Of a stretch of DNA of 64,000 nt, positions 16,666 to 41,152 are shown piece by piece. Both the position numbers and the translations under genes were made by a program. Under the pieces are notes generated by a model. It saw only the letters and a program-made list of their open reading frames with translations, did not search any database and was not told the origin of the DNA. The DNA comes from Verrucomicrobiota bacterium. Lineage in GTDB: Bacteria; Verrucomicrobiota; Verrucomicrobiia; Opitutales; Seribacteraceae. The first letter of the stretch is position 1, and each line of letters opens with the position of its first letter. The stretch spans positions 32,001 to 96,000 of the forward strand of contig JAQBYT010000007.1 of the NCBI GenBank assembly GCA_027622665.1, read 5' to 3'.

Positions 16666-17457
16666 ATGAATGCTTCGAACAAGGTTCTGCTCGGTGCTAG
16701 CGGTCTTTCGGTGGAGCGAGACAGTTTGATCCTCCGCGACGTCGATTGGACGGTTCGGAAAGGAGAACACTGGGTTATCCTGGGCGCGAATGGATCCGGC
16801 AAGAGCACACTACTGAATGTCTTCAACGCTTTCATGGCTCCAACAACGGGCCGGCTTTTCGCCTTTGGCCGCGAGTACGGCGAGGACGACTGGAACGAGG
16901 TCAAGACGGGCATCGGATACGTAGGAAGTGAAATCAACCGCATGATCGAGCACGGGGAGTCAGCTCTCGACGTCATCGTCAGCGGAGCTCGGGCAATGAT
17001 CAATTTCTGGGGAGAAGTCGACCCCAAGGAGCAACGAGCGGCCTCTCACATTCTTCGCCAAATCGGTTGCGGTCATCTTCGTGAACGGCACTGGCAACAG
17101 TTTTCTCAAGGCGAACGCCAAAAACTTCTTTTCGGTCGCGCTCTCATGGCCAAGCCAAAGGCGCTCTTTCTCGATGAACCTTGCGCCGGACTCGATCCGG
17201 TCGCTCGCGCAAGCTACCTTGCCTTCATGGAAACTAACATGGCAAAGCCTAAAGGCCCTGCTCTTATTCTCGTGACCCATCACATCGAGGAGATCACTCC
17301 TGGCTTCACTCACGCCTTGCTCTTGCGCGAAGGGTCTGTCGTGGCTTCCGGTCCGAAAGGAGAAATCCTCACTTCCGCCAACCTTTCCGCAACCTTCGAC
17401 ACCTCTGTTCGTTTGCGCCGAAAGAACGATCGCTATTCGATGACTCTCGCAAAGTAG
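16666..17457 (+). CDS. ABC transporter ATP-binding protein (YlmA/ModF-like), no adjacent permease
   Basis: Walker A GANGSGKS, FSQGE signature variant, Walker B LFLDE, ILVTHH. Confidence 0.88.
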   Translation: MNASNKVLLGASGLSVERDSLILRDVDWTVRKGEHWVILGANGSGKSTLLNVFNAFMAPTTGRLFAFGREYGEDDWNEVKTGIGYVGSEINRMIEHGESALDVIVSGARAMINFWGEVDPKEQRAASHILRQIGCGHLRERHWQQFSQGERQKLLFGRALMAKPKALFLDEPCAGLDPVARASYLAFMETNMAKPKGPALILVTHHIEEITPGFTHALLLREGSVVASGPKGEILTSANLSATFDTSVRLRRKNDRYSMTLAK

Positions 17458-22074: not shown

Positions 22075-23334
22075 TCATTCTTTTCGGAGGGGGTGCCCGA
22101 TGGCGTGTTCTAGGGCGAGGTGAGCGGATTGAAATTGGTATCTGGCCTCGAGGAGTTTGCGACGGACTTCGAAGAGTCCGATGCGAAGCTGGTTTCGTGA
22201 GACAGGATCGATGCCTTGCCCATTGGGGCTTTCCTCGAGGGCAGGAGCAAGCTCGCTTTCGAGGTTTACAGAGGAGATTTCGTGCTCGGCGAGTTGCCGC
22301 GATGCGGCTCGGTAATCACGTAGAGCGCTGGCGAGTGTCAGTCGGAGGTCACGGCGAGCAAGGCGTTGGATAGCGAGATTTTCGTGTAATTCGGCGGTGG
22401 CGGCTTGAATGTCGGCCCGATGTCCCCACATGGGAATCTCTATACCGAGGAGGACGCCCCATTGGTCGGAGTCGGATGAGATGCGCCGATCATGTTCGAT
22501 ATTACCTTGAAAGAAGGAGAACCAAGGGATACGGCGAGCCTCGGCTTGTTGGATACGGGCTCGGGCGGCTTCACCTTCATGTTCGAGTGAGATTAGCTCG
22601 GGGCGTCCCAGAGTGGCAGTTGGAAATAGGTTATTTAGGGTGAGATTGGAGGTGTTTTCATCTGGTTTGGAGAAAGAGGTTACTAGATTTACGGGTGTGC
22701 CTTCGGGTTGGGCGAGGAGTGCGAGTAAGGTGGAAGAAACGCTTTCGTAGGTTCGATCAGCTTTGGAAGCCACGGCGAAAGTTTTGTAGGTCTCTAGTCG
22801 ACTTTCAAGAGCTTTTGGGAGGGTGAGTTGGCCTGCGGCGACAAGGATGTCGTGGGCTGTACGGATGGCCGCTTGGGTTTCGGCGATTTCGTGGGCGAGG
22901 AGTGCGTCTTTTTTTCGATAAAGAGTTTCAAAGTAAAGCCGCTTGACCTCGTAGGAAAGGATGTTTTCAGTCAGCTTGAGTTCTATGCGTGCGACTTCGA
23001 TTCGGGCTTGGCCTTCTTCCACCAGAGCCTTTGTTTCCCATGGGTTGTTCAGTCGAAAGCGTAGGGCATATTCTTGGCTGGATTCACCTGCGAGACGACC
23101 CTCGTCGTGGCTAAGCCGAAGCTCGGGGGCAGGCATGGCGCCGATGGCGCGAAGGCGGGCGCGGACGGATGCTATGCGGGTGCGAGGAGCATCAAGATTT
23201 TCGGTGTTATTCCTCGCCAGTTCGAGGGCTTGTTCAAGTGAAAGATTCCGAGATGCGTTGGCATCTTGGGCGTGACCGAGTGGTGCGGAAAAAATGAAGA
23301 ATGCGAAGATTGCTGCGTGTACGAGACCTTTCAT
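22075..23334 (-). CDS. TolC family outer-membrane efflux protein
   Basis: Start moved to ATG 23334 (MKGLVHAAIF..., signal peptide); LSLEQALELA, RPELI, QWGVLLGIEIPMW, LEHAIG; long helical segments. Confidence 0.8.
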   Translation of the reverse strand: MKGLVHAAIFAFFIFSAPLGHAQDANASRNLSLEQALELARNNTENLDAPRTRIASVRARLRAIGAMPAPELRLSHDEGRLAGESSQEYALRFRLNNPWETKALVEEGQARIEVARIELKLTENILSYEVKRLYFETLYRKKDALLAHEIAETQAAIRTAHDILVAAGQLTLPKALESRLETYKTFAVASKADRTYESVSSTLLALLAQPEGTPVNLVTSFSKPDENTSNLTLNNLFPTATLGRPELISLEHEGEAARARIQQAEARRIPWFSFFQGNIEHDRRISSDSDQWGVLLGIEIPMWGHRADIQAATAELHENLAIQRLARRDLRLTLASALRDYRAASRQLAEHEISSVNLESELAPALEESPNGQGIDPVSRNQLRIGLFEVRRKLLEARYQFQSAHLALEHAIGHPLRKE

Positions 23335-23342
23335 CAAAAGAT

Positions 23343-24461
23343 TCAGGAACCCCGGAGGAAGCCGAAAAAACCTATCGAGGTGGTTTCGATGACGACCCAT
23401 TCGCCGGGGACGAAGGCATCGTGATCTTGGCCCGTGATGGAGCGGAGTTGGATGTTGCGTCCGCGAGCCATGCGATTGGGGGCGTTGCGGACGCGCCCGG
23501 GGAAGTTGAGTATGTGAGGGGTAACGGAGACGACCTCCATTCGGATTTGGGCAGAAGGGTTGGTTTCCGAGTATACGACTAGTTCGTCGCCAACGGTGGG
23601 TTGAAGGTGGGCGAAACGTTCGGGTTGAAAGCCCATTACGCGTTTCACTTCCTTACCGTTGGCAGGATCGTACTCCTTAATAATAAGGCGGGCGATTGGT
23701 TCTCCGGCGGGCACGTTTTCGCCTCTTTGGAAGGAGAGTTCGGCTACTACGCCGTCGTTGGCGGCTTTGAGAAAGCAGTGCTCACGACGTTGCTCTAGGA
23801 GAGCGAGGCGGTTGTTGCCGGGTCGTTCGATTGTGTGTACTTCAGCGAGGCGTGCGATGGAATCTTCCAGGTCTGCCTTTACTTTAGAGATGAGCGAGGG
23901 ATGCATATCCCCTCGCTTTGCTAGGACGGCGATCTTGGCCTCGAGTTCACTCACGATTTCTCGGTCCACTAATCCTCGCTCAAGCAATCCTTTCAGCCGT
24001 TCGAGTTGACGGGATAATATGGCTATTTCGGCGGAATCGGAGGCTTGGTCCATGAGAAGTTCGCTAACATCTACGCGAGTGCTTTGGACGGCCGAGGTGA
24101 AGCGACGATCGCGATCGAGACGGTCGAGCTCTAGTTCTTCCTTGATTGAGGCGATTTGTTTATCGATAAGGCTTGTGTCGAGGACGATGAGGAGATCTCC
24201 GCGAGTTATCTTCTGGCCGATTGCGACCTTTATGTCCTCGATGCGTCCCACTTCGCGACTAGAAATGGACTCGAAGTCAAATTCTACGGTTCCGTTTAGT
24301 TCATAATATCCGCCCCCAAATTCGTAAAGGGCGAAGAGTGCGGGAATGAATAGAAGCCAAACGAAAAGAGGCCACTTCCTGCCGATGCGTCCGAGGCTAC
24401 TGCCGCGGTGACGTTTCGGGGCAGGTTTTAGAGATACTGAAGCCGTTCGTTCGTCAGGCAT
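23343..24461 (-). CDS. HlyD-like membrane fusion (periplasmic adaptor) protein
   Basis: Single N-terminal TM, half-lipoyl motifs GRIEDIKVAIGQKITRGDLL and LKAANDGVV...GENVPAGEPI flanking a coiled coil. Confidence 0.82.
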   Translation of the reverse strand: MPDERTASVSLKPAPKRHRGSSLGRIGRKWPLFVWLLFIPALFALYEFGGGYYELNGTVEFDFESISSREVGRIEDIKVAIGQKITRGDLLIVLDTSLIDKQIASIKEELELDRLDRDRRFTSAVQSTRVDVSELLMDQASDSAEIAILSRQLERLKGLLERGLVDREIVSELEAKIAVLAKRGDMHPSLISKVKADLEDSIARLAEVHTIERPGNNRLALLEQRREHCFLKAANDGVVAELSFQRGENVPAGEPIARLIIKEYDPANGKEVKRVMGFQPERFAHLQPTVGDELVVYSETNPSAQIRMEVVSVTPHILNFPGRVRNAPNRMARGRNIQLRSITGQDHDAFVPGEWVVIETTSIGFFGFLRGS

Positions 24462-24464
24462 GGC

Positions 24465-25148
24465 TCAAATTTCCACGGTGGAGCGTTGCATGACCATGCT
24501 CACATCCTCGATTCCCTCGATGGCTTCGAGATCGACGATTAGGTCGGGTTTTCCGGACGGATCCAGCAGGCGAACATGGTAGGAGTACTCAACAGCCTCT
24601 CCCTGAATGGCTTCCCGCATGGCGACCATGTTGACGGACGAAGTGTGGCGTTCAAAGACCTCGCGGGTGAGTGCTTCACCAGATTCTCCCTTGGGCAAGA
24701 TGAAGCGAAGCAGACCCTCGAAAGAACGGCGAGAGGCAAAGGGTGAGTAGTGCAGAAAGAGGACGGCGAAACAGAAGAAGAGCGACCCTATTATGGCGAC
24801 GTCAACAACTTGAGCCCCAGCGGCGATGCCCGTGGCGAGACTTGCGAAGAGGAAAATAATGTCGCGAGGATCGCGGATGGGGGTGCGAAAGCGAATGAGG
24901 GCTAGGGCGCCGAGAATGCCGAGCCCGCGAGCTAGGTTGTTGCCTATTGCTATGATCATTATGCAGGCTACGATAGCGGCGAGGGCAATGGTTTGCACGA
25001 AAGTCCGAGAGTAGGAATACCCCGTGTGCGTACGCTGATAGACTGCGGCTAACAACAGCGACATGACAAAACTGAGCAGGAGGGAGAAGAGAATCTGCAG
25101 CGGACTGAACGCCCGAGCGGGTCCCAATGCGTTAAAAATCGCTTCCAT
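24465..25148 (-). CDS. DUF4956 (MgtC-like) membrane protein
   Basis: IGNNLARGLGILGALALIRFRTPIRDPRDIIFLF...GIAAG signature, several TM helices, soluble C-terminal domain; likely start ATG 25148 (track gives 25175). Confidence 0.88.
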   Translation of the reverse strand: MEAIFNALGPARAFSPLQILFSLLLSFVMSLLLAAVYQRTHTGYSYSRTFVQTIALAAIVACIMIIAIGNNLARGLGILGALALIRFRTPIRDPRDIIFLFASLATGIAAGAQVVDVAIIGSLFFCFAVLFLHYSPFASRRSFEGLLRFILPKGESGEALTREVFERHTSSVNMVAMREAIQGEAVEYSYHVRLLDPSGKPDLIVDLEAIEGIEDVSMVMQRSTVEI

Positions 25149-25938
25149 TTTCGTATGAACAGTTTTCCGAGACATCAGAATAAGTACTGCCTCGAAATAG
25201 GGATTCCAATCTCATAGCAGCTGAATACTTGCAAAATCCGGTGTTCACGAGATCAAAACGTTCAACCATCTCTGCCATCCATTCGGGGAATTCGGTTTCG
25301 GCCTTCAGTTCTAGAATCTGGCCAGGGTATTCGCGGCACAAGGATGTTTGGGTGTCCATCGAGTACCAACGAGCGGATTGGCATGGAAATGTCCAAGAAC
25401 CTCGAGCGGGTCTATAGCGAAGGCGGCGATCAATGGTTACACGGGCATAGCGTTCGCTAATACCCTTGTAGGATTCCCTGACGTAGTTGATGTAGACAAA
25501 TGGTCTTGCGCCTATCTCCCGCACGAGCCGAACGAACTCAAGATAATTCATGTTCTCGGCTTCGTTCACAAAAGGGATAATACTTGTGGGATGCAAAATG
25601 TTTTCCTTTGAATAGTCTTTAGGTTGCAACACTGCACGACTCTTCAGAATCATGATATTAATCTTTCGCTTGATCTCTAGAAAGTAGGGGCATTCGTTGC
25701 CCGTTCCGTATGTGCGTATCCGTAATTTAAAACGGTTTCTAGCCTTGCGTTCTTTTGCGAAATGGAGGGTGGCGTTTGAGGCATCTAGTTGAAGAGTGGT
25801 GACAAGGTATTCGGGGATATCCCCGACAGTGTGCTCATCCTCGTACACGAATGGGCGAATAAACCGTCGGATTTCCGGAACTTGCTTTGGAACGACCACG
25901 TATTTGTACTCGTAGCGATCGATTTGTCGGTCGCTTAT
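25132..25938 (-). CDS. VTC (polyphosphate polymerase, CYTH/TTM fold) domain protein; start codon uncertain
   Basis: RYEYKY upstream of the track's GTG 25899, RFKLRIRTY, FLEIKRK, YVRESY, RVTIDR, ILELK, FCKY; only ATA 25938 or ATC codons are available as a start that includes the ExK motif. Confidence 0.82.
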   Translation of the reverse strand: MSDRQIDRYEYKYVVVPKQVPEIRRFIRPFVYEDEHTVGDIPEYLVTTLQLDASNATLHFAKERKARNRFKLRIRTYGTGNECPYFLEIKRKINIMILKSRAVLQPKDYSKENILHPTSIIPFVNEAENMNYLEFVRLVREIGARPFVYINYVRESYKGISERYARVTIDRRLRYRPARGSWTFPCQSARWYSMDTQTSLCREYPGQILELKAETEFPEWMAEMVERFDLVNTGFCKYSAAMRLESLFRGSTYSDVSENCSYENGSDF

Positions 25939-26097
25939 TGGGAGAGATGCCTGTAGAGTGCTGATAGTAGGAGTTTTGTGCTAAAGTTGTAGATTTCAAA
26001 CGAGTAACCAGGGATTGCCAAATTTCTCTCAAGGTCACAAACTAATTTCCAAAAATGATATTACATGGAAACATATGAGGTTTCTCAAGCAAATCGC

Positions 26098-26126
26098 TTG
26101 TTTTATTCAAAGTCTGTGCCTATAAC
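26098..26126 (+). promoter_or_regulatory. Possible sigma70 promoter for the giant protein
   Basis: TTGTTT-17 nt-TATAAC in the AT-rich divergent intergenic region; pattern match only. Confidence 0.3.
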
Positions 26127-26173
26127 TTCATGCGAGTCTACCAAATCACGAACCAGTCTATCGTCTATCCCTC

Positions 26174-29100
26174 TTGAATAAAACATCAAATAGTTGGATT
26201 CGAAGGCTAATAGTCGTTCTGGCATGTGCGTCTACGCTGATTCCCCGTTTGTCCTTCGGCGAGGCGATGCTGCAATACTTCAACACCAGTTGGGCGGAGA
26301 TCACTAACCGGATGCCCGAATTGGCGGAAGCGGGGTACTCTTCGCTTTGGCTACCTCCGCCGACGAAGGGAAGCGGGCGACTCTCGGTCGGTTACGACCT
26401 GTGGGACCCGTTCGACCTCGGGGGACGGGAGCAACGAGGCACTTTCCAGACGCGATATGGTACTGAGGCGGAACTGCATCGCTTGATAGAGATGGCCCAC
26501 AGGTTCGGCATTCGTGTCTATTTCGACAATATCATGAATCACCGTGCTTTCGACGTTCCCGGTTACAACGAGCACGCTCCCGAAGACTTATACCCGGGAA
26601 TGCGTCCCGAGGATTTTCACATTAGACGAACCTCTGACGGGCTTTACCGCAAATGGGATAATGTTCGCGAGTGGTGGAGCGAGTGGCAGGTACAAAATCT
26701 CGGACTTTCCGATCTTATAGATATTGCAGCAGAACCTGGAACAACCAACCGAAACTTCGGCGACCGGGAAGGTGCCACGGCGGAGAAGATTAAGTTCCTT
26801 CGACACCCCGACAATCCGGAATTCTATTGTTACGATGCAAACGGCAGCTACGTCGGATTTGGGCAGGACAACGGGCTCACGGTTGAATACCTCGCGCAAA
26901 ACGAGGCCTTTTACTCCGAATACGTTGAGGTTTATCTAAATCGAGCGGCGCGTTGGCTTCTAGACCGTACAAAGGCCGATGGTTTGCGATTGGATGCCGT
27001 AAAGCATATCCCGGCCGATTTTTTCGGCGCCACCTTTGGCGCAGATAGAGATCGTAGCAATTACGGTTACCTCGGGCAGGCTCAGGAGCAATTCAACCTT
27101 ACGCGAGGTTTTTCGGATTGGGACAACCATCGCGATACCGTCTTCGATACCGAGCGTCCGAGAGATGACGCCATGATGTTCGGCGAACACCTGGGGTCAC
27201 CGCCGGCGGTCGATGATTACATCAATGCAGGCATGCGTCTTCTTGATAATGACCTTCGCCATCACCTAAATAGCCAACTTGGTAATCCATTCGGCACCTT
27301 AGCCGGAATGGATGCATCTGGTAGCCATGGCTTTGCTCCCGGTTCTTCAGTTATGCATGCCCAAAGCCACGATAGCGATTATGCTGCCCGACGTGAGTTG
27401 CAACATGCTCTCTACCTGACTCGTGGAGGAATCGGAATAATTTATTCGGACGGCAACCATAAGGCGGGAATTCTCAAAGAGAGCGGAGGAGCTTTTCCAC
27501 GCCATGCAAACACCAATTTCCTTGGTCAATTCGGGGACAATCGCATTCCTAACCTGCTATATTTTCACGAACACTTTGTGAGGGGGTTCCAAGTGGGTCG
27601 CTGGAGCGACGGCGACGTAGTGGTTTACGAACGAGTGGACAAGCGAGACAACCCCGGCATGTCCGATGCGGCAGGTACGGTCGGACTCGTTATGATTAAC
27701 GACAATTACTCGAGTGGTCAGGCACGTGGATTTACCACAGGATTTCTCGCTGAAGGCGGAACGGACAATGACGTTTACCTCTATAATTATTCATCCTATG
27801 GCGGAGGTTTTTTCAAGTATGCCAGCCAGTTAAACCAGGTGGTGATTCCTGCAGGAGGCTATTTCCTGTTTTCATGGAGGAGCCCGGAGCCCTCGGACCT
27901 GTGGGGATTGGCGGGAGGGCATCCTTTGAGCATTTTACAAGATGGGGAAGAGGTGGAAACCATCTCGGTGAGGAGAACTGACGGGCCTGATGGCGATCCA
28001 GCTTTCAATCCTTATGGCGTATCCGATGCCAACCAAACGGACTTTTCTTATTTATGGAAAATCCCAAGGGTAACTAGTGGGAAGAACTTGAAGTTCGTCG
28101 TTCGTGCCGATGGTTCGGCTGAGAACATGTTGCTCAATATCGACGGAGGTATAGATGTTAATGGCAACGGTAAACGGGACAATCCGCCTGCATTTTCCTC
28201 CGATGTTTACCTTGGGTTCGAGCAAATGGATTTCGTCGGAAGGCAAGGGCCGGAGAAATTCGCCGCCGGCGACACAAGTCGCAATATGATAGGATCCGCA
28301 GGGGCAGAAACTTATTGGTGGTCTGCCGATAACGGTTCCTTCTTCACCGTGAACGGTGGTTCCGGAGATGATTCCTATGAAGATGAGACCGCCCACTGGG
28401 CGTATCACGCTCCAGAGCAAAACAATGACCAAGGGGAAAAGCAGTTCAAGGTTGCGGAAAGCTCGGCGACTGTCTGGGTGAAAGTAGGCTACAACCTTGA
28501 GGTGAATCAAGCTCGGCTTTACCATGTGATCGACGGCAGTAATCCCGAAGGGGCGGGGGGGGGCGGTATCGGCACGACGCAAGTTACCTCGTTTGCCTTT
28601 TCCCACTCCGATGGACAAGAGCCCACCGTCGATTGGTGGAAAGCCACCGTTCCTTTGCCGGACTCAGGAATCTTCAAATACAAGATCGGTGTGTATCGCA
28701 ACGAATTGAACGGTGCTTCACTGGCCAGCGTTTTTCCGAAAAACGAGTCCGCTGTGGCTCTCAAAAAGAAGATGCTAACCAGCTTCGAAATAGACGGTTT
28801 CGATGCCGAAGCCATTGAGTATTATCCGCACCGCGACTACGGCGACAAGGTAACTGGTCTGAAGGAGGGTTTCCACTTTGTGAAGGCACGGGCTTTCCTG
28901 AGCCGATTAGGCGAAGCTTCCATCTACAATACCTTTTCGCGTACCTTGTACTACGATACCAAGCGTCCCGAGGGTACGGTCAACTTTCCCGGAAGAGATG
29001 GCGAGGAATTGTTTGGTTCCGAATACGGGTTCGTTGTCCGCACCGATTCCAGCGTGACCGAGGTGCTTTTCCACATTGATGATGACGACCCGACTAACGA

Positions 29101-32100
29101 TGATGGTCAGATTGGCGCCCTCAACGGCAACGGGGAAACCGGCGACGGAAATTCAAGTGCTTGGGCATCCGCCGTGGAAATCACCTCGCGACAAAACCTA
29201 GGAGTCGGTTTTCCGAAGGAATGGCGGTTCAGTTACCGTAATGTGCCCTCGGGCGGGGGTGAGGCCACCGTGCGCATCGCTTTGCGGGAGGCTTCCTCGT
29301 CAACCGACCTGACGCTCAACGAAGAGGAGGGTCACTTCCGCATCCTAGACCGAAAGGTGAAGACTAGCGGTCCCAGTCATCGACTCTTCGTGACTTGGCC
29401 ACAACAGGACGGTGAGAAGGTCGGGCAGGATTACCTCATGAAAACCTACCTCAGTTCAGGACTCGTCGACGGGCGGAGCGATGCGGAGGTAATCGCCAAC
29501 TTAACCGTCAGCATCGACGACTCCGTAACCCAAGAGGCTCCCTATGCTCCCGCCGTAGCCCAAGACATTTCGAGCGCATGGGTGGAGCGAAACGTGACTC
29601 CTGGTTTGGCAGCCCTCGCCTACAAACTTCCCATTTTGCGGAATCCTGCCGGGGCTCCGGACGATTTCAGGCAGACCATTATCGTGGACTACCAGGATTC
29701 CGTGGCGGGCGTCGATCTGCGCACCATCCGCACCGTCGCCACGGATTTCGTAAGTCACGGATCAGCCAACCCCATCCTCACGGTCAACGGGGTTCCCGCC
29801 GACTACACCACGACCAACTTTTTCGTGGATGAGGTTAAGGGAGACGAGGAAACCTTGGAGATTGTTCTCGAGGCTCCCCATGTAATAGTGGCGGAAGTCT
29901 ACACCAACCTGAACAACCGTGATCTCGCTACGGGTGACTCGAACGAAGACGGCATCGAGGACGGTATTCAGCCACCGAACCGCAATTCAGTTTCTCTGGA
30001 TAATAACGCCGGTTACTATAAAGTCCATGCCATGACCCTCGATCCCGCTCGCGGTGAGGCTGGCGCTTGGGTTTGCCAATTGAAGGCCCGCAAGACGGGA
30101 GCCTACCGTTTGACCGCCCGCTTCAAGCTGAAGGACGATGCCGATGTCTGGCACTGGTACACGAGTGAAGGGCGTCGCGATCATGCGGTCGTTGTTACTC
30201 CGAAGGCGGCCCGCGAGGCCATCATGTACGAACTGAACCCTCTCTCTGTCGATGCGACAGGAGACACCTTCGCGACCCGAAGCACCTTCGAGGACCTGCA
30301 CGACGAGAATCGATGGAACCTCGAATACCTGAAGGGAATTGGCGCAAATTGGCTCTGGTTCCAGCCCATCCACCCCCGTGGGATTGACGGACGTGAAATC
30401 GTGAACGGTCAACCCTATGACCCCGGCAGTCCCTACGCGGTAAAGAACTTCTTCGAGGTGATGCCACAACTGAGCGAGGCAAACACTAGACCCGCCGCCA
30501 TGCAGGCCTTTCAGGATTTCGTGATGGCGGCCGACTCCGAGGGAATCGGTGTCATGGTTGATGCTCCCTTCAATCATGTTGCGTGGGATGCGGAACTGGA
30601 TGAAGAGGGTGTAGCAATCTTCGAAACGGGCGTCCCGGACGACGAAATCCGCAAGACGCTTCCTGGATTCTTTTCCCGTAAAGACGACTATGGCCTACCC
30701 GCACGCGACGAAAACGAAATCGCCACGGCTCCCGACCGCGACGACTTCGGTAAGTGGGAGGACGTCAAGGATGTCTACTTTGGTAACTACTCGGCCCTCG
30801 TCCGGGGTAATGACCCCGCCGAACGTAACCCCCATCAGAATGAGGAGGATGTCTTCGACTACGCCGGCGAAGGCTGGAACGACCAGACCCGGAGGACTTG
30901 GAGGTACTTCGCCTCCTATGTTCCCTACTGGTTGGAGAAGACGGGCCTGCCCGCAGGACAGCCAGCCAGCGTTCAAGCCCAAACGGGTATCGATGGCCTG
31001 CGGGCTGACTTCGGTCAAGGCCTTCCTCCCCAGCTCTGGGAGTACGTTATCAATGTGGCTCGCTCCCGCAAGTGGAGCTTCGTCTTCATGTCGGAGGCGC
31101 TGGACGGCGGGGCAGTCACCTACCGCTCGAGTCGGCATTTCGACGTATTGAACGAAAATCTTGTCTTTGCTCAGCAGTCTTTGACAACGCCGGATGGCTA
31201 TCGCTCGGCTTTCGAAAACAGGCGTTCGGCCTATGGACAGAGCCTCCTGTTGCTCAATAATGTTTCTCACGACGAGGAAAACTACCAAGACCCGTGGCAG
31301 GCTTTCATCCGCTACGCCTCTTCCAGTGTCAACGATGGTGTCCCTATGCTTTTTATGGGTCAGGAATTGGGCATCTCTCGGACTTACGGTTTTACCCACT
31401 ACGAAACCAATATGGGCAAGCAGATACCCCACTTCAAGATTCATAACTCGATGCAACCCATCTGGGACAACGGGGACTTTGGGTTAGACCAACTTTACAA
31501 AGCTTACGCGAGTATAGGGCGTGCGCGTTCGGCTAGTCCCGCCCTGAGCTCCTCTTATCGCTATTTCCTTAACGAAATAATCACCAATGCGCCGCACGAT
31601 AAAATCAACGCAACTGCTAAGTGGGAGAACTCCGTTTCCTCGCCCAGTACGTCCGACCTCGTCCTTGCCTTCGTTAATCTGGACCGCGACAATCAGCAGT
31701 CGGGTGCCTTCGACTTAAGTCCGAGTGGAGACGAGGCGCTCCTCGGTCTCGAGAAGGACCACCTTTACAATGTCTCCAATCTCGCCGCCTTTCAGACCGA
31801 GGCAAAGGATGTGTTCCTCTGGCCGCAGGCTCGTTCCGGACATGACTTGCTGGAGAACGGCATCTTCGTTCTCTTAAACCCGGTGCCCCCGGATGCAGGG
31901 GGTTGGACAAATGCTCCCTACGAGGCCCAGTTCCTGAAGGTGCACGACCTTTCCGTTCCCCTGCTTGAAATGAACGCTAGTACAGGAGGGAGCACCAAAG
32001 GTTCTGGAAGTTACTCATACGGCAGTCATGTAAACATTGAGGCTACTGCGGAACCGGGATACGCCTTCGACGGGTGGCTTGGGGGCGGAGTGGTTAACCC

Positions 32101-35100
32101 GTCCGCTACCCACACGACCATATCCATGACTGAACCTCGTTCCGTCACCGCCACTTTTCGTTATGTCGGAGACCCGGGGAACATGCCGACCATTTCGGAA
32201 TTTATGGCATCGAACGACAAGACCCTATTTTCCGCTTCGGGAGATTCGGATGACTGGATTGAGATTCACAATCCCGGAACAAATTCTATAGACTTGAGCG
32301 ATTGGTACCTGACCAACGACCCCGCCAACCGAACTATGTGGCGCTTCCCGGATGAAACCACTCTCGGCGGGAACGATCGTCTCGTTGTCTTCGCCTCGGG
32401 TTTAGGGTCAGCGGCAAACGCAGGTGGGTCGTTAACTCGCGCCTCCGACCTCCTTGCTCATTGGTCCTTCGACGAGGGAAGCGGTACGCTCGCCGCTGAC
32501 CAGAGCGGCAACAACCACGACATCACAAGCATCGGTGGGGCTACATGGACCGACGGAAAGTTCGGCAAGGCGTTTTCCTACGATGGAGGTTCGACTGCTC
32601 TGCCCTTGGCTGCACATCCTCCCGCCTCGGGGACCGAATTCTCCATATCGTTCTGGAGTTACGGTGACCCTGCAAAATTGCCGGGCAAGAATACCAGTAT
32701 CATCGAATCCAGCGGGCCGAGTGGACGTATCTTGAATATCCATTTCCCTTGGAGCAATGGCAATGTCTACTGGGACGCAGGGAATGGTGGCAGCGACCGC
32801 ATCAACACAGCCATTGCGGACAACTACCTCTGGGGAAACTGGTCGCATTGGGTATTCGTGCACAACCGGACTACGGGAGATCAGAAATATTACCTTAACG
32901 GTTCGGCAAAAATGTCAGCTTCGGGCAGAACTCGACAACTCGGGACTGTAGATCGATGGTATCTTGGATCCGACCGTAACGGAAACAGTTCCTATTGGTA
33001 CGGCAAGGTGGATGACCTTCGGGTGTACGGGGTGGAACTTTCCGGTTCCGACGTCGAGTCAATCTATCGAGAGAACCCTTGGCGTACGCATACAACCTTC
33101 AAGCTCGATGCTTCAGGGGGGTATCTCGCACTCATCAAGGGCGACGGGACAGTTGGCAAGATTGTCAACTATCCAAAACAGGAAGAGGACTACTCCTACG
33201 GCATGCCTTCCAATCAGGTTATTCCTTCGGACTCCTATCTTAAGTTGGCAACACCTGGGAAGGAGAACGAAGAGGGATTCCTCGGTTTCGTTGCAGACAC
33301 CAAGTTCAATGTAGATCGAGGATTCTTCGAAACCCCTTTCACCCTTTCAATAACTACAGCCACTTCTGGAGCCACTATTCGTTACACTACCGATGGTTCC
33401 GCTCCGTCCGCTTCTTACGGGAATGTATACGTTGCCCCCTTCGCAATCAGCACCACCACCATAGTACGGGTCATTGCCTCCAAGCCGGACTATGTTACGA
33501 CCGACGTGGATACCCAGAGTTATTTCTTTCCCGAAGATGTTATTCGCCAGTCAGCCGACGGCTTTACTCCAGTGGGATGGCCCGCCACTGGTGCAGTCAA
33601 CAACCAGCAGATGGTCTACGGTATGGATCCCGACATCGTAACTGGGTTTAATACTCCGGTGGAAGTGAAAGAAGCTCTCCTTGCTCTTCCCACGCTATCT
33701 ATTGCCACCGAGTTGGATAATTTGTTCGGGCAATCGAACGGAATCTATGTGAACGCAGGTAATGATGGTCGATCTTGGGAAAGGCCAATGTCCCTGGAAC
33801 TTATTAATCCGGATGGAAGTAAAGGATTCCAAATCGATGCAGGGATGCGAATCAGAGGCGGATACAGTCGAAGCACTAGTAATCCGAAGCATTCCTTTCG
33901 TATCTTCTTTCGTAGCGAATATGGCCAAAGTAATCTACATTACCCCATGTTCGAGGATGAGGGTGTGGAGGAGTTCGACAAGTTCGACCTGCGCACTTCG
34001 CAGAACTACTCGTGGGCCTTCGGCGGGCCCGCGAACAATACCATGGTCCGTGAGGTCTGGAGCCGCGATACCCAGTCCGCCATGGGGCACCCCTATACGC
34101 GAAGTCGCTACTATCATCTTTACCTTAACGGAGTTTATTGGGGAATCTATATGACACAAGAGCGTGTCAGCGGTACCCTCGGAGAATCCTACCTTGGCGG
34201 CGATAAGGACGACTACGACACCGTTCACCAAGACAATTCCAAGCAAATTAACGCCACGGGAGGGAATCTCGAGGCTTATGACCGCCTTTGGCAGCGAACC
34301 ATTGATGGATGGACGGACAACGATGATTATTTCCAAGCCCAAGGTCTTGATGTCGATGGCAAGGCCAGTAACCCTGACTTTGAGAACCTTCTGGATGTCG
34401 ACAACCTCATCGACTACATGCTTATTGTCTACTACAATGGCGATCGAGACGGTCCTGCCTCCCGCTACACTACTCCCCGGGTGAACAACTATTACGCCTT
34501 TTACAACAGGGCCAACCCCGATGGCTGGAAGTTTCCCGCCCACGACATGGAGCACTCTCTGGGGCGAGGCGAGAACAACATGGTCACTCCACTGGCCAGC
34601 GACCATCAAGACCGAGACGAAAAAAAGTACTTTACCGCTCACTTTCTTCACGAACAACTTACCTCCAATCAGGAATACGTTATTCGTTTTGCCGACCGCT
34701 TTTATCTGAGACATTTCAACGATGGGGTCTTGTCGGAAGAAAATGCAAAAGCCCGAATTGCGTTTCGTTCGTCCCAAATCGACAAGGCTATCATCGCAGA
34801 ATCCGCCCGCTGGGGAGACACCAAGTCCGGCATCCCAAAGAATCGCAATGACTGGGTGAACAACGTGAAAATGGTCACGAACTGGATGACGGGCCGTAAC
34901 GCCGTCGTCCTGAATCAACTACGTACTACACGGATCAACGCGAGTTCCTCCTTTTGGTACCCGAGCATCGATCCACCGGGTTTCAGTCAACACGGCGGAC
35001 AAGTGGGCTCCTCCTTCCGCCTCAGTATGGCTGATCCCAACATGGCTCCAGTCGCCATCCATTATACTCTCGACGGATCCGATCCCCGACTCGTTGGGGG

Positions 35101-38100: not shown

Positions 38101-41100
38101 GATCCGGACGATTGCCGTGGTCGATACCACGCCCCCCATTCTAGCTCTCATAGGCTCGCCCTCCGTTCAGCTCTTTCTCGGTTCAACTTTCATTGATCCC
38201 GGAACCGTCGCAGTTGATGCTTTGGATGGCAATCTTACGAACGACGTAGTTATTTCTGGCGTGGTGGATATAGACGTAGCTGGATTCTACTCGCTTCATT
38301 ACAATGTAAACGATGCCTCGGGGAACGGAGCTCAGACGGTTTCTCGAACCGTTACAGTTGTTGGCATCCCGCCGCCTGTTATCACCTTGCGGGGCGGGGC
38401 TACAGTTGTTCTTGACGAGGGCGAACCATATGCAGAATTAGGTTTTTTCGCCGAAGATTCACTGGACGGTAATCTGACTGCGACCGTTGTGGTTGGCGGG
38501 GACACGGTGGATGCAAACCGACCCGGTTCCTATTTCGTGACCTACGACGTGATGAATTCTAGGGCAGTAGGCGCCACCGAAGCCATCCGCAAGGTGATCG
38601 TGCGTGACGTCACAGCGCCAGTTCTCACTTTGTCAGGTTCGGACGCAATCGTTCACGAGGTAGTTACCCCTTTCTTTGACCCTGGAGCCATCGCCAACGA
38701 TGTTACCGATGGAAACCTGACTGGGATCATTATTGTAGGAGGTGATATTGTGGACAGCAACCATTTAGGTCTCTACACTATCACCTACGATGCTTCCGAC
38801 AAGGCGGGCAACTTTGCCGCAACTCTAACCCGTACCGTAACGGTCAGGGATGGCGCCGCTCCCGTGGTTACCCTCCTCGGTGAGTCGAACGCCACCCATG
38901 AAGCCGGAACACCCTACCATGACTTTGGAGCAACCGCCTACGACGCCTTCAATGGAGATCTTTCCGACGCCATAAGTGTTTCAGGGGATGTCAATGCATT
39001 CCAGCCTGGACTCTATTTTCTCACCTACTCCGTTTCGGATCCGGCGGGCAACGTCGGGCAAGTCGTTAGAGTGGTTAATGTTGTCGACACCATGCCGCCC
39101 GTCCTCAAGTTGCTCGGCGAACTTAATGCGACTTTCGAGGCTGGGTTCGGTCTAGGATCCCTCGATTTCAGTGCTGTTGCTCAAGACATTTTGGATGGGA
39201 ACCTAACAGATTTAATCATCGTTTCGAGCAATGTGAATGACCATGTCCAAGGAGATTATGTTATCGGTTACTCAGTTTTCGATAAGGCGGGCAATGCTGC
39301 TCTCCCTCGGGAACGTATCGTTCGTATTAGGGATACTCTACCTCCTGTCCTTAGCATCTTTGGGGGAGAGGAGATCACCCTCCAACCAGGTTCCCTCTGG
39401 ATCGACCCCGGCGTGGCAGCCTTCGACCTTGCGGACGGCAACTTAGCCGACAATATTCTCGTTCTTGGCGCGGTGAACGTAAATAGCATCGGTGACTACG
39501 AGCTAAGCTACTCGGTCTCCGATAAAGCGGGGAACGCCGCGTTCACTCTCACTCGTCTCGTCAAGGTTCTCAGCTTGGCATCACCCGTCATTACCCTGCT
39601 CGGGCCCGATACGGTTACCCTCGACCAAGGCACTGCCTTTGTGGATCCCGGATTCATCGCCCAAGATCCGTTCGACGGCAACCTCACCCACCTTGTCCGA
39701 TCCTACGACAATCTCGACGTGAGCGTGCCCGGCATCCATCATATCGCTTATTTCGTGACCAACGCTTCCGGACTTTCCTCTGAGGAAGCTGTTCGCACGA
39801 TTATCATAAATGATCTTAATGACGCACCAGCAACCAATGGCGTCGAAGCCTTCTTCTCCCCGATACGCGAAGACATAGGAAGTGGAGCCGAAAATACCGG
39901 CGATACGGTATCCTCTCTTGTTGAAGGTATAACAGATCTCGACTCCAATGCAGTTTTCGGCTTCGCCCTTGTCGCAATCGATGATTCCAACGGTACTTGG
40001 CAATACTCTCTCGACGGAGGCAAAGCTTATTTCTCAGTCGACGACATTACTCAAGCCAACGCCCTCCTTCTACATGCAGACGATCCAAAGACTCTTCTTC
40101 GGTTCGTACCACGGAGCGAATTTTTTGGTACAGCCTCACTCACCTTCCGAGCTTGGGACCAAACCGTAGGTGCCAATGGAGAACGTTTTACTATAGTTGA
40201 AACTGGTGGTCATTCCGCATTCAGTTCGGATGTTGCTCTTGCTGCTATCAAGATCGAGCCTTCGCCTGACTCACCTTTCTTCACTACTCACCCCATTCTG
40301 CGCGGCAAGGCTCTTTCGAACTACTCCTACACTGTTACTGTCATTCATCCGGACGGCGAAGACTTCAGCCTTCATGCCGTCGCCTTGCCCCAATGGCTCT
40401 CCTTCGAGTTAAACGCAGACGGTTCAGCTACTCTTACTGGTATACCCGCGGTTGGAGACGTGGGTGCTCATGCCGTTATCCTGAAAGCTACCGATGCATC
40501 GGGCAAATTTTCGGAGCAAAGCTTTGCCATCGCCGTGTCCTCAGGCAAAGTCTTCGATCTCGAATATGGTTGGAATGGGCTCGACTGGTTCGGGCAGTTC
40601 TACGTGTCTTCCAAAACTTGGATCTACCATCCCAACCACGGTTGGCTTTTCCCCGGAGAAAAAGCAGGAAGCAATGAAGAGGGCATCTGGTTTTGGTCGG
40701 AAAGCCTTGGCTGGCACTGGACCCGCGAGGACGTGTACCCCTATCTCTATATTCGCCGCAGACAACGTTCTGCCCAAGACGTATATCGTACCGACGAACT
40801 CTTTACCGCATTTGGCTGGTTCTTTTATCAACGGGAATCTCATCACCCCCGCTTATTCTTCGACTACGAGATACACGATTGGATGGCGGAATCGCGCTTT
40901 GCTCCAGTCCTTGTAAATGCCAATCTTAACGACTCTCGCGGTGGCATTGTGACAGGTGCCGGTTATCATGGACACGGAGATGCAGTCACTCTCGTTGCCG
41001 AGGCGAATTCAGGCTATAAGTTCTTGAATTGGAATGGGGCGATACAAGGCGAATCCCCCTCCCTCACTTTTACCATTACACGAAACATTTCCCTGACTGC

Positions 41101-41152
41101 CAACTTCGAGAAACTTTCCGATGAGGAAATTCTTGAAGGGGTTTTCGATTAA
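26174..41152 (+). CDS. Giant secreted multidomain protein: 2x GH13 alpha-amylase, InlB-B-like repeat, LTD, LamG, CotH kinase, 3 more LTD, Ig-like domains incl. 9 DUF5011-like repeats, aromatic C-terminal module
   Basis: Uninterrupted 4992-aa ORF with signal peptide. GH13 motifs DGLRLDAVKH/FGEH/QSHD and DGLRADFGQG/MSEA/VSHDE. LTD starts ISEFMASN, ISEIMYNP (x2), ISEILTH. LamG LLAHWSFDEG...GKVDDLRVY. CotH RIRGGYSR...LYLNGVYWGIY...DNLIDY...NNYY...HDMEHSL. Confidence 0.92.
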   Translation: MNKTSNSWIRRLIVVLACASTLIPRLSFGEAMLQYFNTSWAEITNRMPELAEAGYSSLWLPPPTKGSGRLSVGYDLWDPFDLGGREQRGTFQTRYGTEAELHRLIEMAHRFGIRVYFDNIMNHRAFDVPGYNEHAPEDLYPGMRPEDFHIRRTSDGLYRKWDNVREWWSEWQVQNLGLSDLIDIAAEPGTTNRNFGDREGATAEKIKFLRHPDNPEFYCYDANGSYVGFGQDNGLTVEYLAQNEAFYSEYVEVYLNRAARWLLDRTKADGLRLDAVKHIPADFFGATFGADRDRSNYGYLGQAQEQFNLTRGFSDWDNHRDTVFDTERPRDDAMMFGEHLGSPPAVDDYINAGMRLLDNDLRHHLNSQLGNPFGTLAGMDASGSHGFAPGSSVMHAQSHDSDYAARRELQHALYLTRGGIGIIYSDGNHKAGILKESGGAFPRHANTNFLGQFGDNRIPNLLYFHEHFVRGFQVGRWSDGDVVVYERVDKRDNPGMSDAAGTVGLVMINDNYSSGQARGFTTGFLAEGGTDNDVYLYNYSSYGGGFFKYASQLNQVVIPAGGYFLFSWRSPEPSDLWGLAGGHPLSILQDGEEVETISVRRTDGPDGDPAFNPYGVSDANQTDFSYLWKIPRVTSGKNLKFVVRADGSAENMLLNIDGGIDVNGNGKRDNPPAFSSDVYLGFEQMDFVGRQGPEKFAAGDTSRNMIGSAGAETYWWSADNGSFFTVNGGSGDDSYEDETAHWAYHAPEQNNDQGEKQFKVAESSATVWVKVGYNLEVNQARLYHVIDGSNPEGAGGGGIGTTQVTSFAFSHSDGQEPTVDWWKATVPLPDSGIFKYKIGVYRNELNGASLASVFPKNESAVALKKKMLTSFEIDGFDAEAIEYYPHRDYGDKVTGLKEGFHFVKARAFLSRLGEASIYNTFSRTLYYDTKRPEGTVNFPGRDGEELFGSEYGFVVRTDSSVTEVLFHIDDDDPTNDDGQIGALNGNGETGDGNSSAWASAVEITSRQNLGVGFPKEWRFSYRNVPSGGGEATVRIALREASSSTDLTLNEEEGHFRILDRKVKTSGPSHRLFVTWPQQDGEKVGQDYLMKTYLSSGLVDGRSDAEVIANLTVSIDDSVTQEAPYAPAVAQDISSAWVERNVTPGLAALAYKLPILRNPAGAPDDFRQTIIVDYQDSVAGVDLRTIRTVATDFVSHGSANPILTVNGVPADYTTTNFFVDEVKGDEETLEIVLEAPHVIVAEVYTNLNNRDLATGDSNEDGIEDGIQPPNRNSVSLDNNAGYYKVHAMTLDPARGEAGAWVCQLKARKTGAYRLTARFKLKDDADVWHWYTSEGRRDHAVVVTPKAAREAIMYELNPLSVDATGDTFATRSTFEDLHDENRWNLEYLKGIGANWLWFQPIHPRGIDGREIVNGQPYDPGSPYAVKNFFEVMPQLSEANTRPAAMQAFQDFVMAADSEGIGVMVDAPFNHVAWDAELDEEGVAIFETGVPDDEIRKTLPGFFSRKDDYGLPARDENEIATAPDRDDFGKWEDVKDVYFGNYSALVRGNDPAERNPHQNEEDVFDYAGEGWNDQTRRTWRYFASYVPYWLEKTGLPAGQPASVQAQTGIDGLRADFGQGLPPQLWEYVINVARSRKWSFVFMSEALDGGAVTYRSSRHFDVLNENLVFAQQSLTTPDGYRSAFENRRSAYGQSLLLLNNVSHDEENYQDPWQAFIRYASSSVNDGVPMLFMGQELGISRTYGFTHYETNMGKQIPHFKIHNSMQPIWDNGDFGLDQLYKAYASIGRARSASPALSSSYRYFLNEIITNAPHDKINATAKWENSVSSPSTSDLVLAFVNLDRDNQQSGAFDLSPSGDEALLGLEKDHLYNVSNLAAFQTEAKDVFLWPQARSGHDLLENGIFVLLNPVPPDAGGWTNAPYEAQFLKVHDLSVPLLEMNASTGGSTKGSGSYSYGSHVNIEATAEPGYAFDGWLGGGVVNPSATHTTISMTEPRSVTATFRYVGDPGNMPTISEFMASNDKTLFSASGDSDDWIEIHNPGTNSIDLSDWYLTNDPANRTMWRFPDETTLGGNDRLVVFASGLGSAANAGGSLTRASDLLAHWSFDEGSGTLAADQSGNNHDITSIGGATWTDGKFGKAFSYDGGSTALPLAAHPPASGTEFSISFWSYGDPAKLPGKNTSIIESSGPSGRILNIHFPWSNGNVYWDAGNGGSDRINTAIADNYLWGNWSHWVFVHNRTTGDQKYYLNGSAKMSASGRTRQLGTVDRWYLGSDRNGNSSYWYGKVDDLRVYGVELSGSDVESIYRENPWRTHTTFKLDASGGYLALIKGDGTVGKIVNYPKQEEDYSYGMPSNQVIPSDSYLKLATPGKENEEGFLGFVADTKFNVDRGFFETPFTLSITTATSGATIRYTTDGSAPSASYGNVYVAPFAISTTTIVRVIASKPDYVTTDVDTQSYFFPEDVIRQSADGFTPVGWPATGAVNNQQMVYGMDPDIVTGFNTPVEVKEALLALPTLSIATELDNLFGQSNGIYVNAGNDGRSWERPMSLELINPDGSKGFQIDAGMRIRGGYSRSTSNPKHSFRIFFRSEYGQSNLHYPMFEDEGVEEFDKFDLRTSQNYSWAFGGPANNTMVREVWSRDTQSAMGHPYTRSRYYHLYLNGVYWGIYMTQERVSGTLGESYLGGDKDDYDTVHQDNSKQINATGGNLEAYDRLWQRTIDGWTDNDDYFQAQGLDVDGKASNPDFENLLDVDNLIDYMLIVYYNGDRDGPASRYTTPRVNNYYAFYNRANPDGWKFPAHDMEHSLGRGENNMVTPLASDHQDRDEKKYFTAHFLHEQLTSNQEYVIRFADRFYLRHFNDGVLSEENAKARIAFRSSQIDKAIIAESARWGDTKSGIPKNRNDWVNNVKMVTNWMTGRNAVVLNQLRTTRINASSSFWYPSIDPPGFSQHGGQVGSSFRLSMADPNMAPVAIHYTLDGSDPRLVGGTISPVAQVAQSSGIQNTLLLDAGVPAKAFVPTNDSWGSAWYQPGFDDSAWQSGSSGVGYDTATTYRSLFGIDVLSSMLNKNTSVYCRVPFIATNSTEFTNLTLKMKYDDGFVAYLNGTKVASANAPSNPAWNGKSTSSHSDSAAQQYISFDLTPHLAHLREGVNILAVHGLNVSTDSSDMLIVPRLEASRLVGGTEIALPHHLTHVKARTRTTLGEWSALHEATFQVDVVPAAGDNLLISEIMYNPSGTGGSEYVEVRNVGPFRIDLTGVTLGGAFDDFTFGSLTLASGESAVVVQDVAGFNARYLDPVSPYYAPGIVVAGQWPEGKLNNGGEMIALTDVKGADILTFQYDDGGNWPNRTDGRGSSLILPNPTSLAGMTLAERNVYLADGDNWKSSTGFHGNPGTAEVTGTGTPPVLISEILTHTDSPLVDAIELHNPSSQPVDLSGWRLTESSSSLQGFRIPDGTVIAPSGYLVFDETDFNPNGLWNPNAGPRGSDEFALSGARGGDIWLIEADGAGNLLAFVDHVEFGASLNGVSFGRWPNGSAGKLYPMKERSLFDEATGTYPPQKRGGPNPGAMRGQIMISEIMYNPPDGNVDLEFVELYNSSNSSVSLSGWDLDRGVDFTFSAGTLLKPGQSLVVVGFDLNATEKLTAFRLAYGIGPEVVLVGGWQGKLNNGGETISLLRPDAPPADDPTYTPMVIEESVTYSNLPPWPIQADGNGTSLVRSKRDSWSDDVQSWANSTGTPSPGPSSSLNNPPTFTSEFPTAKIAVGALFSHRFVASDPDGNILSFSSPSTPFWLNFRDEANGSAILWGNPPPYVVGAHTVVVEVSDGIADPIEKIFVLTVEDQTSPILTLRGAANLVHEAGTLYVDPGVIAVDAVDGDLSTKVKVVNPVNISNPGTYVVSYSVSDQVGNEAMALSRTVVVADTKPPVMDLIGGVALTHEGAITFTDPGAYAFDILDGNLTTKITVTGVVDVNVTGTYQLTYGAIDDANNSATPVIRTIAVVDTTPPILALIGSPSVQLFLGSTFIDPGTVAVDALDGNLTNDVVISGVVDIDVAGFYSLHYNVNDASGNGAQTVSRTVTVVGIPPPVITLRGGATVVLDEGEPYAELGFFAEDSLDGNLTATVVVGGDTVDANRPGSYFVTYDVMNSRAVGATEAIRKVIVRDVTAPVLTLSGSDAIVHEVVTPFFDPGAIANDVTDGNLTGIIIVGGDIVDSNHLGLYTITYDASDKAGNFAATLTRTVTVRDGAAPVVTLLGESNATHEAGTPYHDFGATAYDAFNGDLSDAISVSGDVNAFQPGLYFLTYSVSDPAGNVGQVVRVVNVVDTMPPVLKLLGELNATFEAGFGLGSLDFSAVAQDILDGNLTDLIIVSSNVNDHVQGDYVIGYSVFDKAGNAALPRERIVRIRDTLPPVLSIFGGEEITLQPGSLWIDPGVAAFDLADGNLADNILVLGAVNVNSIGDYELSYSVSDKAGNAAFTLTRLVKVLSLASPVITLLGPDTVTLDQGTAFVDPGFIAQDPFDGNLTHLVRSYDNLDVSVPGIHHIAYFVTNASGLSSEEAVRTIIINDLNDAPATNGVEAFFSPIREDIGSGAENTGDTVSSLVEGITDLDSNAVFGFALVAIDDSNGTWQYSLDGGKAYFSVDDITQANALLLHADDPKTLLRFVPRSEFFGTASLTFRAWDQTVGANGERFTIVETGGHSAFSSDVALAAIKIEPSPDSPFFTTHPILRGKALSNYSYTVTVIHPDGEDFSLHAVALPQWLSFELNADGSATLTGIPAVGDVGAHAVILKATDASGKFSEQSFAIAVSSGKVFDLEYGWNGLDWFGQFYVSSKTWIYHPNHGWLFPGEKAGSNEEGIWFWSESLGWHWTREDVYPYLYIRRRQRSAQDVYRTDELFTAFGWFFYQRESHHPRLFFDYEIHDWMAESRFAPVLVNANLNDSRGGIVTGAGYHGHGDAVTLVAEANSGYKFLNWNGAIQGESPSLTFTITRNISLTANFEKLSDEEILEGVFD
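37645..39810 (+). repeat. Nine tandem ~80-aa DUF5011/HYR-like Ig repeats within the giant protein
   Basis: Repeating P-x-I/L-T-L-x-G...DPG-x2-A-x-D-x2-DG(N/D)L(T/S)...G-x-Y-x3-Y-x-V-x-D-x2-GN...R-x-V-x-V. Confidence 0.85.

Follow-up and report, generated by a model that had tools for sequence, protein, structure and literature searches.

Pairs of a periplasmic adaptor and a TolC-like protein are export devices, known to work with ABC, RND or MFS pumps. HlyBD-TolC, MacAB-TolC, AcrAB-TolC and EmrAB-TolC each combine a membrane-anchored adaptor with an outer-membrane factor, and the same two parts are present in the four-gene cassette described here from the window, a 64,000-nt stretch of a verrucomicrobial contig. 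Unlike these tripartite exporters, however, the cassette has no linked ABC, RND or MFS subunit; a 227-aa DUF4956 protein and an enzyme are found instead. That enzyme has the tunnel fold and catalytic residues in common with the eukaryotic VTC complex (yeast Vtc4/Vtc3/Vtc1; 3g3q, 3g3r, 7ytj, 8i6v), in which, according to PMC9911596, synthesis of polyphosphate (polyP) is coupled to its passage through the membrane, a logic that we propose for the cassette too. Whereas the eukaryotic complex has SPX and membrane helices on its catalytic subunit, the cassette VTC is a stand-alone catalytic domain, the MgtC-like, ACT-domain-bearing DUF4956 is its proposed partner in the membrane, and an adaptor and a TolC-like protein are added. 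The cassette belongs neither to the eukaryotic VTC complex nor to the ABC/RND/MFS exporters, and probably works like a hybrid of both.

Tripolyphosphatases of the TTM/CYTH type (AtTTM3, E. coli YgiF) likewise have the tunnel fold, the metal-binding Glu and one Glu of the acidic patch seen in the cassette VTC, although the latter gives lower fold scores against them (Z 12-14) and is basic at three patch positions. MgtC/SapB proteins resemble DUF4956 in combining a membrane domain with an ACT domain; by contrast, the cassette protein falls into Pfam DUF4956 and not MgtC, carries an invariant R-F-R motif and is encoded in a tight operon with VTC. The three families CotH, VTC and DUF4956 that are found in the cassette neighborhood also occur together among the accessory genes of Gram-positive pel loci (cotH, poly-phosphate polymerase, DUF4956), for which the accessible parts of the sources give no function (PMC7112168; bioRxiv 2024.04.20.589940). 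The second of these sources suggests that polyP stays cytoplasmic in Streptococcus (bioRxiv 2024.04.20.589940) and reports the trio as not found outside pel operons. The cassette differs from the pel trio in the added adaptor and TolC-like protein and in its CotH, here a giant secreted protein, and no Pel-type family was identified among the 15 ORFs scanned around it. No description of a duct-bearing cassette was found in the literature searched, which lay largely outside subscription journals and supplements.

The genes for VTC, DUF4956, the adaptor and the TolC-like protein are four tightly packed ORFs on the minus strand, divergent from a 4992-aa ORF on the plus strand (Table 1). With starts at ATG 25148, ATG 24461 and ATG 23334, their junctions are a 17-nt overlap followed by gaps of 3 and 8 nt, and the packing claimed in the original prediction proved exact when the junctions were recomputed. 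The same prediction held that a secreted CotH protein is transcribed divergently, as the plus-strand ORF bears out, and that no ABC, RND or MFS transporter accompanies the operon; in agreement, a scan of the 15 ORFs between 14.7 and 47.2 kb found no membrane subunit of an RND, MFS or ABC exporter. The sole ABC match in this interval is a lone ModF-like ATPase (16666-17457) on the opposite strand, two genes off. DUF4956, VTC and CotH each occur in one copy in the 4.5-Mb genome, all at this locus, so their clustering is not a matter of chance. Within the divergent intergenic region no sigma-70-like site was detected, and promoter and terminator scans remained at chance level. Contigs of four seawater RNA runs cover the locus thinly and evenly, including the intergenic region, and hence give no sign of expression. 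A nearby plus-strand gene (14744-16063) encodes a protein of 439 aa that is made of helical repeats, is anchored at its N-terminus and matches nothing in Pfam or NCBIfam; proteins resembling it occur near two other loci (L147 and L153).

Table 1. Features of the cassette and of the divergent giant gene, in window coordinates
Feature	Coordinates	Strand	Basis
VTC-domain triphosphate-tunnel enzyme (Vtc4-like), cytoplasmic	25132..25965	-	Pfam VTC E 4e-26; probable ATC start 25965
DUF4956, five-helix membrane domain and C-terminal ACT-fold domain	24465..25148	-	Pfam E 3e-12; model
Periplasmic adaptor (membrane fusion protein), dedicated family	23343..24461	-	HlyD/biotinyl-lipoyl weak in Pfam; NCBIfam EmrA-type 1e-12
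TolC/OEP-family outer-membrane factor, dedicated clade, signal peptide	22075..23334	-	Pfam OEP E 5e-20
Divergent intergenic region, 208 bp	25966..26173	.	Junction coordinates
Secreted surface protein, 4992 aa	26174..41152	+	Signal peptide, two GH13, LTDs, LamG, CotH, Ig repeats, recurrent C-terminal motif
First GH13 domain	26258..27973	+	D/E/D catalytic-type motifs aa 273-278, 336-340, 398-402
Second GH13 domain	30194..31963	+	Motifs at aa 1610, 1639, 1698
CotH kinase domain	33848..34903	+	Pfam E 5e-23; 5jd9/5jda profile E 5e-4
C-terminal region, candidate surface-sorting motif	40544..41152	+	tblastn matches on ~20 contigs of same genome

The called start of VTC, GTG 25899, excludes the R-x-E-x-K tunnel motif (25917-25903), and the reading frame is open up to 25980. 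An ATC at 25965 aligns with ATC in four close relatives, and two more distant ones have ATG in that region. Judged from this alignment, VTC probably starts upstream of the called GTG, at ATC 25965. Such a non-canonical start (25965-25963, minus strand) may hold the polymerase level low.

Conservation of the cassette was assessed in two samples. For the first, GTDB was scanned with an alignment of 13 DUF4956 sequences, broad alignments having no conserved seed for a locus scan; the top 80 relatives out of 238 were kept, all near the query clade. Among these best 80 of 238 relatives, VTC lies immediately upstream of DUF4956 in 77 of 77 assessable loci, the adaptor immediately downstream in 79 of 79, and a TolC-like gene next after the adaptor in 44 of 66. 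The prediction that the adaptor is kept beside VTC-DUF4956 thus holds, like the other genomic predictions examined. The dedicated TolC is missing from all nine genomes of a second adaptor subclade, which keeps the adaptor (0/9). The second sample comprised 401 evenly drawn Verrucomicrobiota genomes; it may overlap the GTDB set, and its counts are kept separate. DUF4956 occurs in 63 of these genomes at 72 places, with a cassette-type adaptor directly downstream at 35, an adaptor and TolC relocated elsewhere in the genome at two, and CotH adjacent at 26, while four were left unsorted. Because the adaptor-linked VTC-DUF4956 pairs make a single clade (68/90 sequences, support 1.0), the high linkage counts reflect one origin, not many independent events. 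Adaptor linkage is kept down to 25% DUF4956 identity. Mirror-tree correlations over 60 loci were high (r 0.82-0.95), as expected for linked genes, and are not counted as co-evolution. Beyond Verrucomicrobiota, coverage consisted of one plasmid, 55 metagenomic loci and atlas taxa. The plasmid, NZ_CP111047.1 of Chondrinema litorale (Bacteroidota), carries DUF4956, an HlyD-family adaptor and a weakly TolC-like gene (L335:8893-11833), and no VTC was found on the replicon, which counts against the coupled reading.

Several loci depart from the standard arrangement. The adaptor and dedicated TolC occur without DUF4956 at L074, L075, L085 and L086. In two of these genomes they are second copies, lying on opposite strands with a few genes in between, and in the other two the operon is split. 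Some assemblies (L084, L087, L088) show a broken or shifted frame for the adaptor or TolC, which may be real or an assembly error. DUF4956 and VTC are accompanied by a 910-930-aa beta-helix protein amid polysaccharide/LPS biosynthesis-like genes at L016-L018 and L188; the L016 protein has a weak CotH match, and L017 carries a tandem duplication. In a sister clade (L255, L259, L263, L265), a prepilin-type N-methylation protein of ~250 aa directly follows DUF4956.

The VTC ORF spans at most 282 codons and encodes the VTC domain only, with no hydrophobic segment, SPX domain or membrane helix. Its profile matches only Vtc4/Vtc2/Vtc3 in the PDB (E 6e-20), and its model (pLDDT 91.5) aligns to Vtc4 (3g3r) with Z 21.8 and rmsd 2.8 over 234 residues; fold scores to Vtc proteins are Z 18-22, as opposed to at most 14.4 to other tunnel enzymes (12-14 for hydrolases). 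All 91 VTC sequences compared share the residues equivalent to Vtc4 R264, R266, K281, E426, K428 and K458, and that of K200 is kept in 88 of 88 ungapped rows. R264, R266 and E426 make up a catalytic mutant of Vtc4 (PMC9911596), K458 is catalytic (PMC4641920), and hydrolases are described with four acidic-patch glutamates where Vtc4 has basic residues (PMC4641920). One of these four positions is acidic in the cassette VTC (E10) and the others are basic (R8, K212, K99 or R101), with the mapping inferred from motif register and fold ranges and not from residue-level superposition. These features of profile, modeled fold and catalytic residues make VTC look polymerase-like rather than hydrolase-like, in line with the function first assigned to it. 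E10, however, a hydrolase glutamate absent from Vtc4, is kept in 87 of 87 ungapped rows and counts against a polymerase. In addition, residue conservation is not proof of polymerase activity, because AtTTM3 is described as a hydrolase despite the same tunnel arrangement (PMC4641920). No assay of any bacterial VTC protein was found in the literature searched, to which subscription journals and supplements contributed little. On the basis of fold and residues, we consider VTC likely to be a polymerase.

The DUF4956 model (pLDDT 82) has five membrane-length helices and an ACT domain, and the ACT fold gives matches at Z 9-11, including the C-terminal domain of MgtC (Z 9.4). Fold searches with the whole protein return ACT-domain matches alone, and a PDB profile search with DUF4956 gave nothing significant. 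A Streptococcus homolog likewise has membrane helices and an ACT domain, according to the preprint (bioRxiv 2024.04.20.589940). Y37, G77, R86, F87 and R88 are invariant in 91 of 91 sequences, across adaptor-, CotH- and porin-linked classes. In the model, R86 and R88 end a glycine-rich helix at what would be the cytoplasmic face, with the ACT domain inside, and a ring of such arginines is plausible as an entry for a polyanion. It is quite probable that DUF4956 is the inner-membrane partner of the adaptor. A predicted complex of three DUF4956 chains with VTC gave ipSAE 0.01 twice, in runs made without controls, and is counted neither way. DUF2490 is presumably an outer-membrane barrel. A Bacteroides thetaiotaomicron DUF4956 is listed beside DUF2490 in a table of PMC10434189.

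From the observed gene order and its conservation, the identity of families and folds, the conserved residues and the co-occurrence of genes, we propose that polyP synthesis is coupled to export through DUF4956, the adaptor and TolC, a reading to which we assign a probability of about 0.5. A cytoplasmic Vtc4-type enzyme would use ATP to build polyP on the inner side of a channel made of DUF4956 oligomers, where the invariant R-F-R arginines would receive the chain. DUF4956 would thus replace the ABC, RND or MFS pump, with polymer growth as the driving force, and the adaptor and the dedicated TolC-like protein would take the product through the periplasm and outer membrane to the surface. Secreted CotH-type kinases would act there, where the product arrives.

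A link to CotH, also part of the original prediction, is borne out at the level of genomes: CotH is present in 59 of the 63 DUF4956 genomes and in 28 of the 338 others, counts that cover Verrucomicrobiota and in which kin are not independent. CotH is also found in 35 of the 37 genomes with an adaptor-type cassette, and lies inside the locus in only 15 of 80 GTDB loci (best 80 of 238), or 13 of the 54 loci of at least 12 kb. The CotH domain in the window has its motif residues at Lys 2572, Glu 2627, catalytic Asp 2759, Asn 2772 and metal-binding Asp 2791. The roles of CotH D228/D251, and the use of ATP by Bacillus subtilis CotH in vitro, are reported in PMC7821199; the latter counts against polyP as the donor. 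Where VTC-DUF4956 has no duct, the adjacent CotH has a tail of at most 180 aa (31/32) and mostly an anchor-like N-terminus (by eye), whereas the CotH found next to a duct is rich in LTDs and has a cleavable-looking signal and a tail of at least 286 aa (13/13). This pattern fits a product that needs the duct only if the kinase lies outside the outer membrane. It is conceivable, if rather doubtful, that CotH uses the exported polymer as its phosphoryl donor, directly or via ATP regeneration at the surface. Against a strict donor role stand the 28 genomes with CotH and no VTC, as none of the CotH-positive, DUF4956-negative genomes has VTC (0/28). A catalytically dead CotH in such genomes was considered and is unsupported, given that the 20 domains sampled from them are surface-type and mostly retain the catalytic aspartates.

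The same trans-envelope machine might instead carry a small phosphoryl donor for CotH (ATP, PPPi, short polyP or another nucleotide) that VTC makes or regenerates. The dependence on CotH (59/63) and the ATP-dependence of that kinase speak for such a cargo, and the compartment pattern of CotH would suit any donor. The character of the duct also favors it, and counts against export of long polyP: the adaptor family averages -2.0 charges per 100 aa, conserved basic residues are scarce in the TolC clade, and no continuous basic conduit can thus be recognized. The retention in VTC of the basic positions that guide the chain in Vtc4 argues against a small cargo, as does the persistence of CotH without VTC, and we regard this alternative as rather unlikely.

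VTC-DUF4956 loci without a duct have either a membrane-anchored CotH or a gene of the phosphate-porin family. A Porin_O_P gene directly follows DUF4956 at 5 of the 72 places, and among metagenomic loci of the porin-linked clade it takes the next position in 10 of the 41 that could be assessed. Where such a barrel comes straight after VTC-DUF4956 (L180-L184, L239-L249, L287), it has conserved arginines, and one of these loci runs on into PhoH; PhoH and PhoD genes lie near one locus each. The match spans only ~150 of the 370 Pfam positions, and the porin profile has no match in the PDB. The porin class suggests that a solute of the phosphate type passes the outer membrane, although the match is partial and says nothing on direction. 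OprO/P are uptake porins, which favors a reversal of the scheme in which porin or duct, together with DUF4956, would take in polyP or triphosphate and VTC would hydrolyze it or transfer it to ADP. The porin in the third slot of one clade, the retained E10 of VTC and the nearby PhoH and PhoD genes could all be accommodated by such scavenging. On the other hand, adaptor-TolC pairs are export devices, the VTC fold and three of the acidic-patch positions are polymerase-like, and uptake leaves the near-obligate CotH unexplained. We therefore consider import unlikely, and outward transport the probable direction.

Returning to coupled synthesis and export, a broader form can be tentatively suggested, in which VTC-DUF4956 is a bacterial polyP synthase-translocase that powers phosphorylation outside the cytoplasm. 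It might act alone for a periplasmic or wall CotH anchored in the inner membrane, and with a phosphate-type porin or an adaptor-TolC pair for a giant surface CotH that would use polyP and not ATP.

A membrane helix (W-P-x-x-V-W) lies at the N-terminus of the adaptor. This helix (W30, P31, W35), as expected if the protein docks on a specific membrane partner, and an R-G-R motif both fall in its best-conserved part. Its relatives were collected with HMMER (189 at 1e-10; a word search of the protein database returned only 11). Scores exceed 190 bits for full-length adaptors of the main clade, and the second subclade, at 115-146 bits, overlaps generic adaptors. The TolC-like protein matches CusC/OprJ/TolC in the PDB (E 1e-22 to 1e-16), and its clade is separated by a clear gap from generic proteins (>170 bits versus ≤116). 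Among 25 main-clade genomes without a local copy, 16 have the dedicated TolC unlinked and the other nine are without it, in assemblies that are incomplete; none of the 16 genomes whose DUF4956 has no adaptor has it (0/16). The assignment of the TolC-like gene to the cassette is thus upheld by a dedicated clade, often unlinked when not local.

It is possible to see DUF4956 as an MgtC-like regulator, with polyP staying in the cytoplasm and the adaptor-TolC pair serving an unlinked pump. The ACT domain matches the C-terminal fold of MgtC, the closest solved relative of the adaptor is the MFS partner EmrA (4tko, E 3e-30), and the genome has nine MFS_1 matches. Yet no EmrB exceeds the cut-off in this genome, its three RND pumps each lie beside their own adaptor or outer-membrane factor, and in the 79 loci assessed (best 80 of 238) the adaptor is never away from DUF4956. 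A conserved pump is likewise missing from the surroundings of the cassette in relatives, as the original prediction would have it: in 116 cassette loci, 68 of them flanked by 2.5 kb or more on each side, a same-strand ABC/MacB match within 2.5 kb occurs in four, and a protein with at least eight membrane helices within that distance also in four (one same-strand). Two of the four ABC matches look like LptB, a label that we assign from motifs, and another is a distinct MacB-type pump that has an adaptor to itself. No pump was found among 14 neighbors of the unlinked dedicated TolC, taken from 10 of 16 loci. Finally, the genome encodes its own PPK1, so VTC is not needed for cytoplasmic polyP stores. 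A regulator with a distant pump is, in our view, quite unlikely.

The divergent giant was predicted to be tied to the operon as a CotH-amylase, and this holds for CotH but not for the amylase, which elsewhere, among the places listed, is unfused and unlinked. The GH13 half is a member of a family whose proteins, of ~2800 aa, occur in 48 of the 401 Verrucomicrobiota genomes, with ORFs mostly of 2800-3000 aa, and the motifs of its two domains presumably have catalytic roles. The secreted double-GH13 family (26258-31963; L324-L334) is 55-69% identical and is fused to the CotH giant here. The amylase was rejected as a part of the system, since among the places listed this family lies at a DUF4956 locus only here; near three other loci (L070, L186, L190) there are only related GH13 giants, and at L028 two separate genes, one for the amylase and one for the CotH giant, flank the cassette. 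The amylase-CotH fusion is local to this lineage, and its amylase part is incidental. The C-terminal motif of the giant is Trp/Tyr-rich, occurs in many proteins of the genome and has no Pfam match save an InlB-type repeat. Type I secretion of the giant through the adaptor and TolC, for which the divergent adjacency here and in the genus would speak, is extremely unlikely, considering the giant's signal-peptide-like N-terminus (by eye and hydropathy), its lack of RTX motifs (0), the three ABC_membrane matches of the genome, with ORFs of ~600 aa, that are unlinked to the cassette, and the presence of similar giants in genomes that lack the cassette.

If a polymerase-type enzyme and a small DUF4956 protein indeed serve a conserved duct, the exporter would differ in kind from those that rely on pumps. 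Should the broader form with CotH be true, the cassette would represent a further class of tripartite exporter, energized by polymer synthesis instead of a pump, and would explain the source of the phosphoryl donor used by bacterial kinases outside the cell. Translocation coupled to VTC would then have its counterpart in bacteria, and marine and sediment bacteria a way of bringing polyphosphate to the outside.
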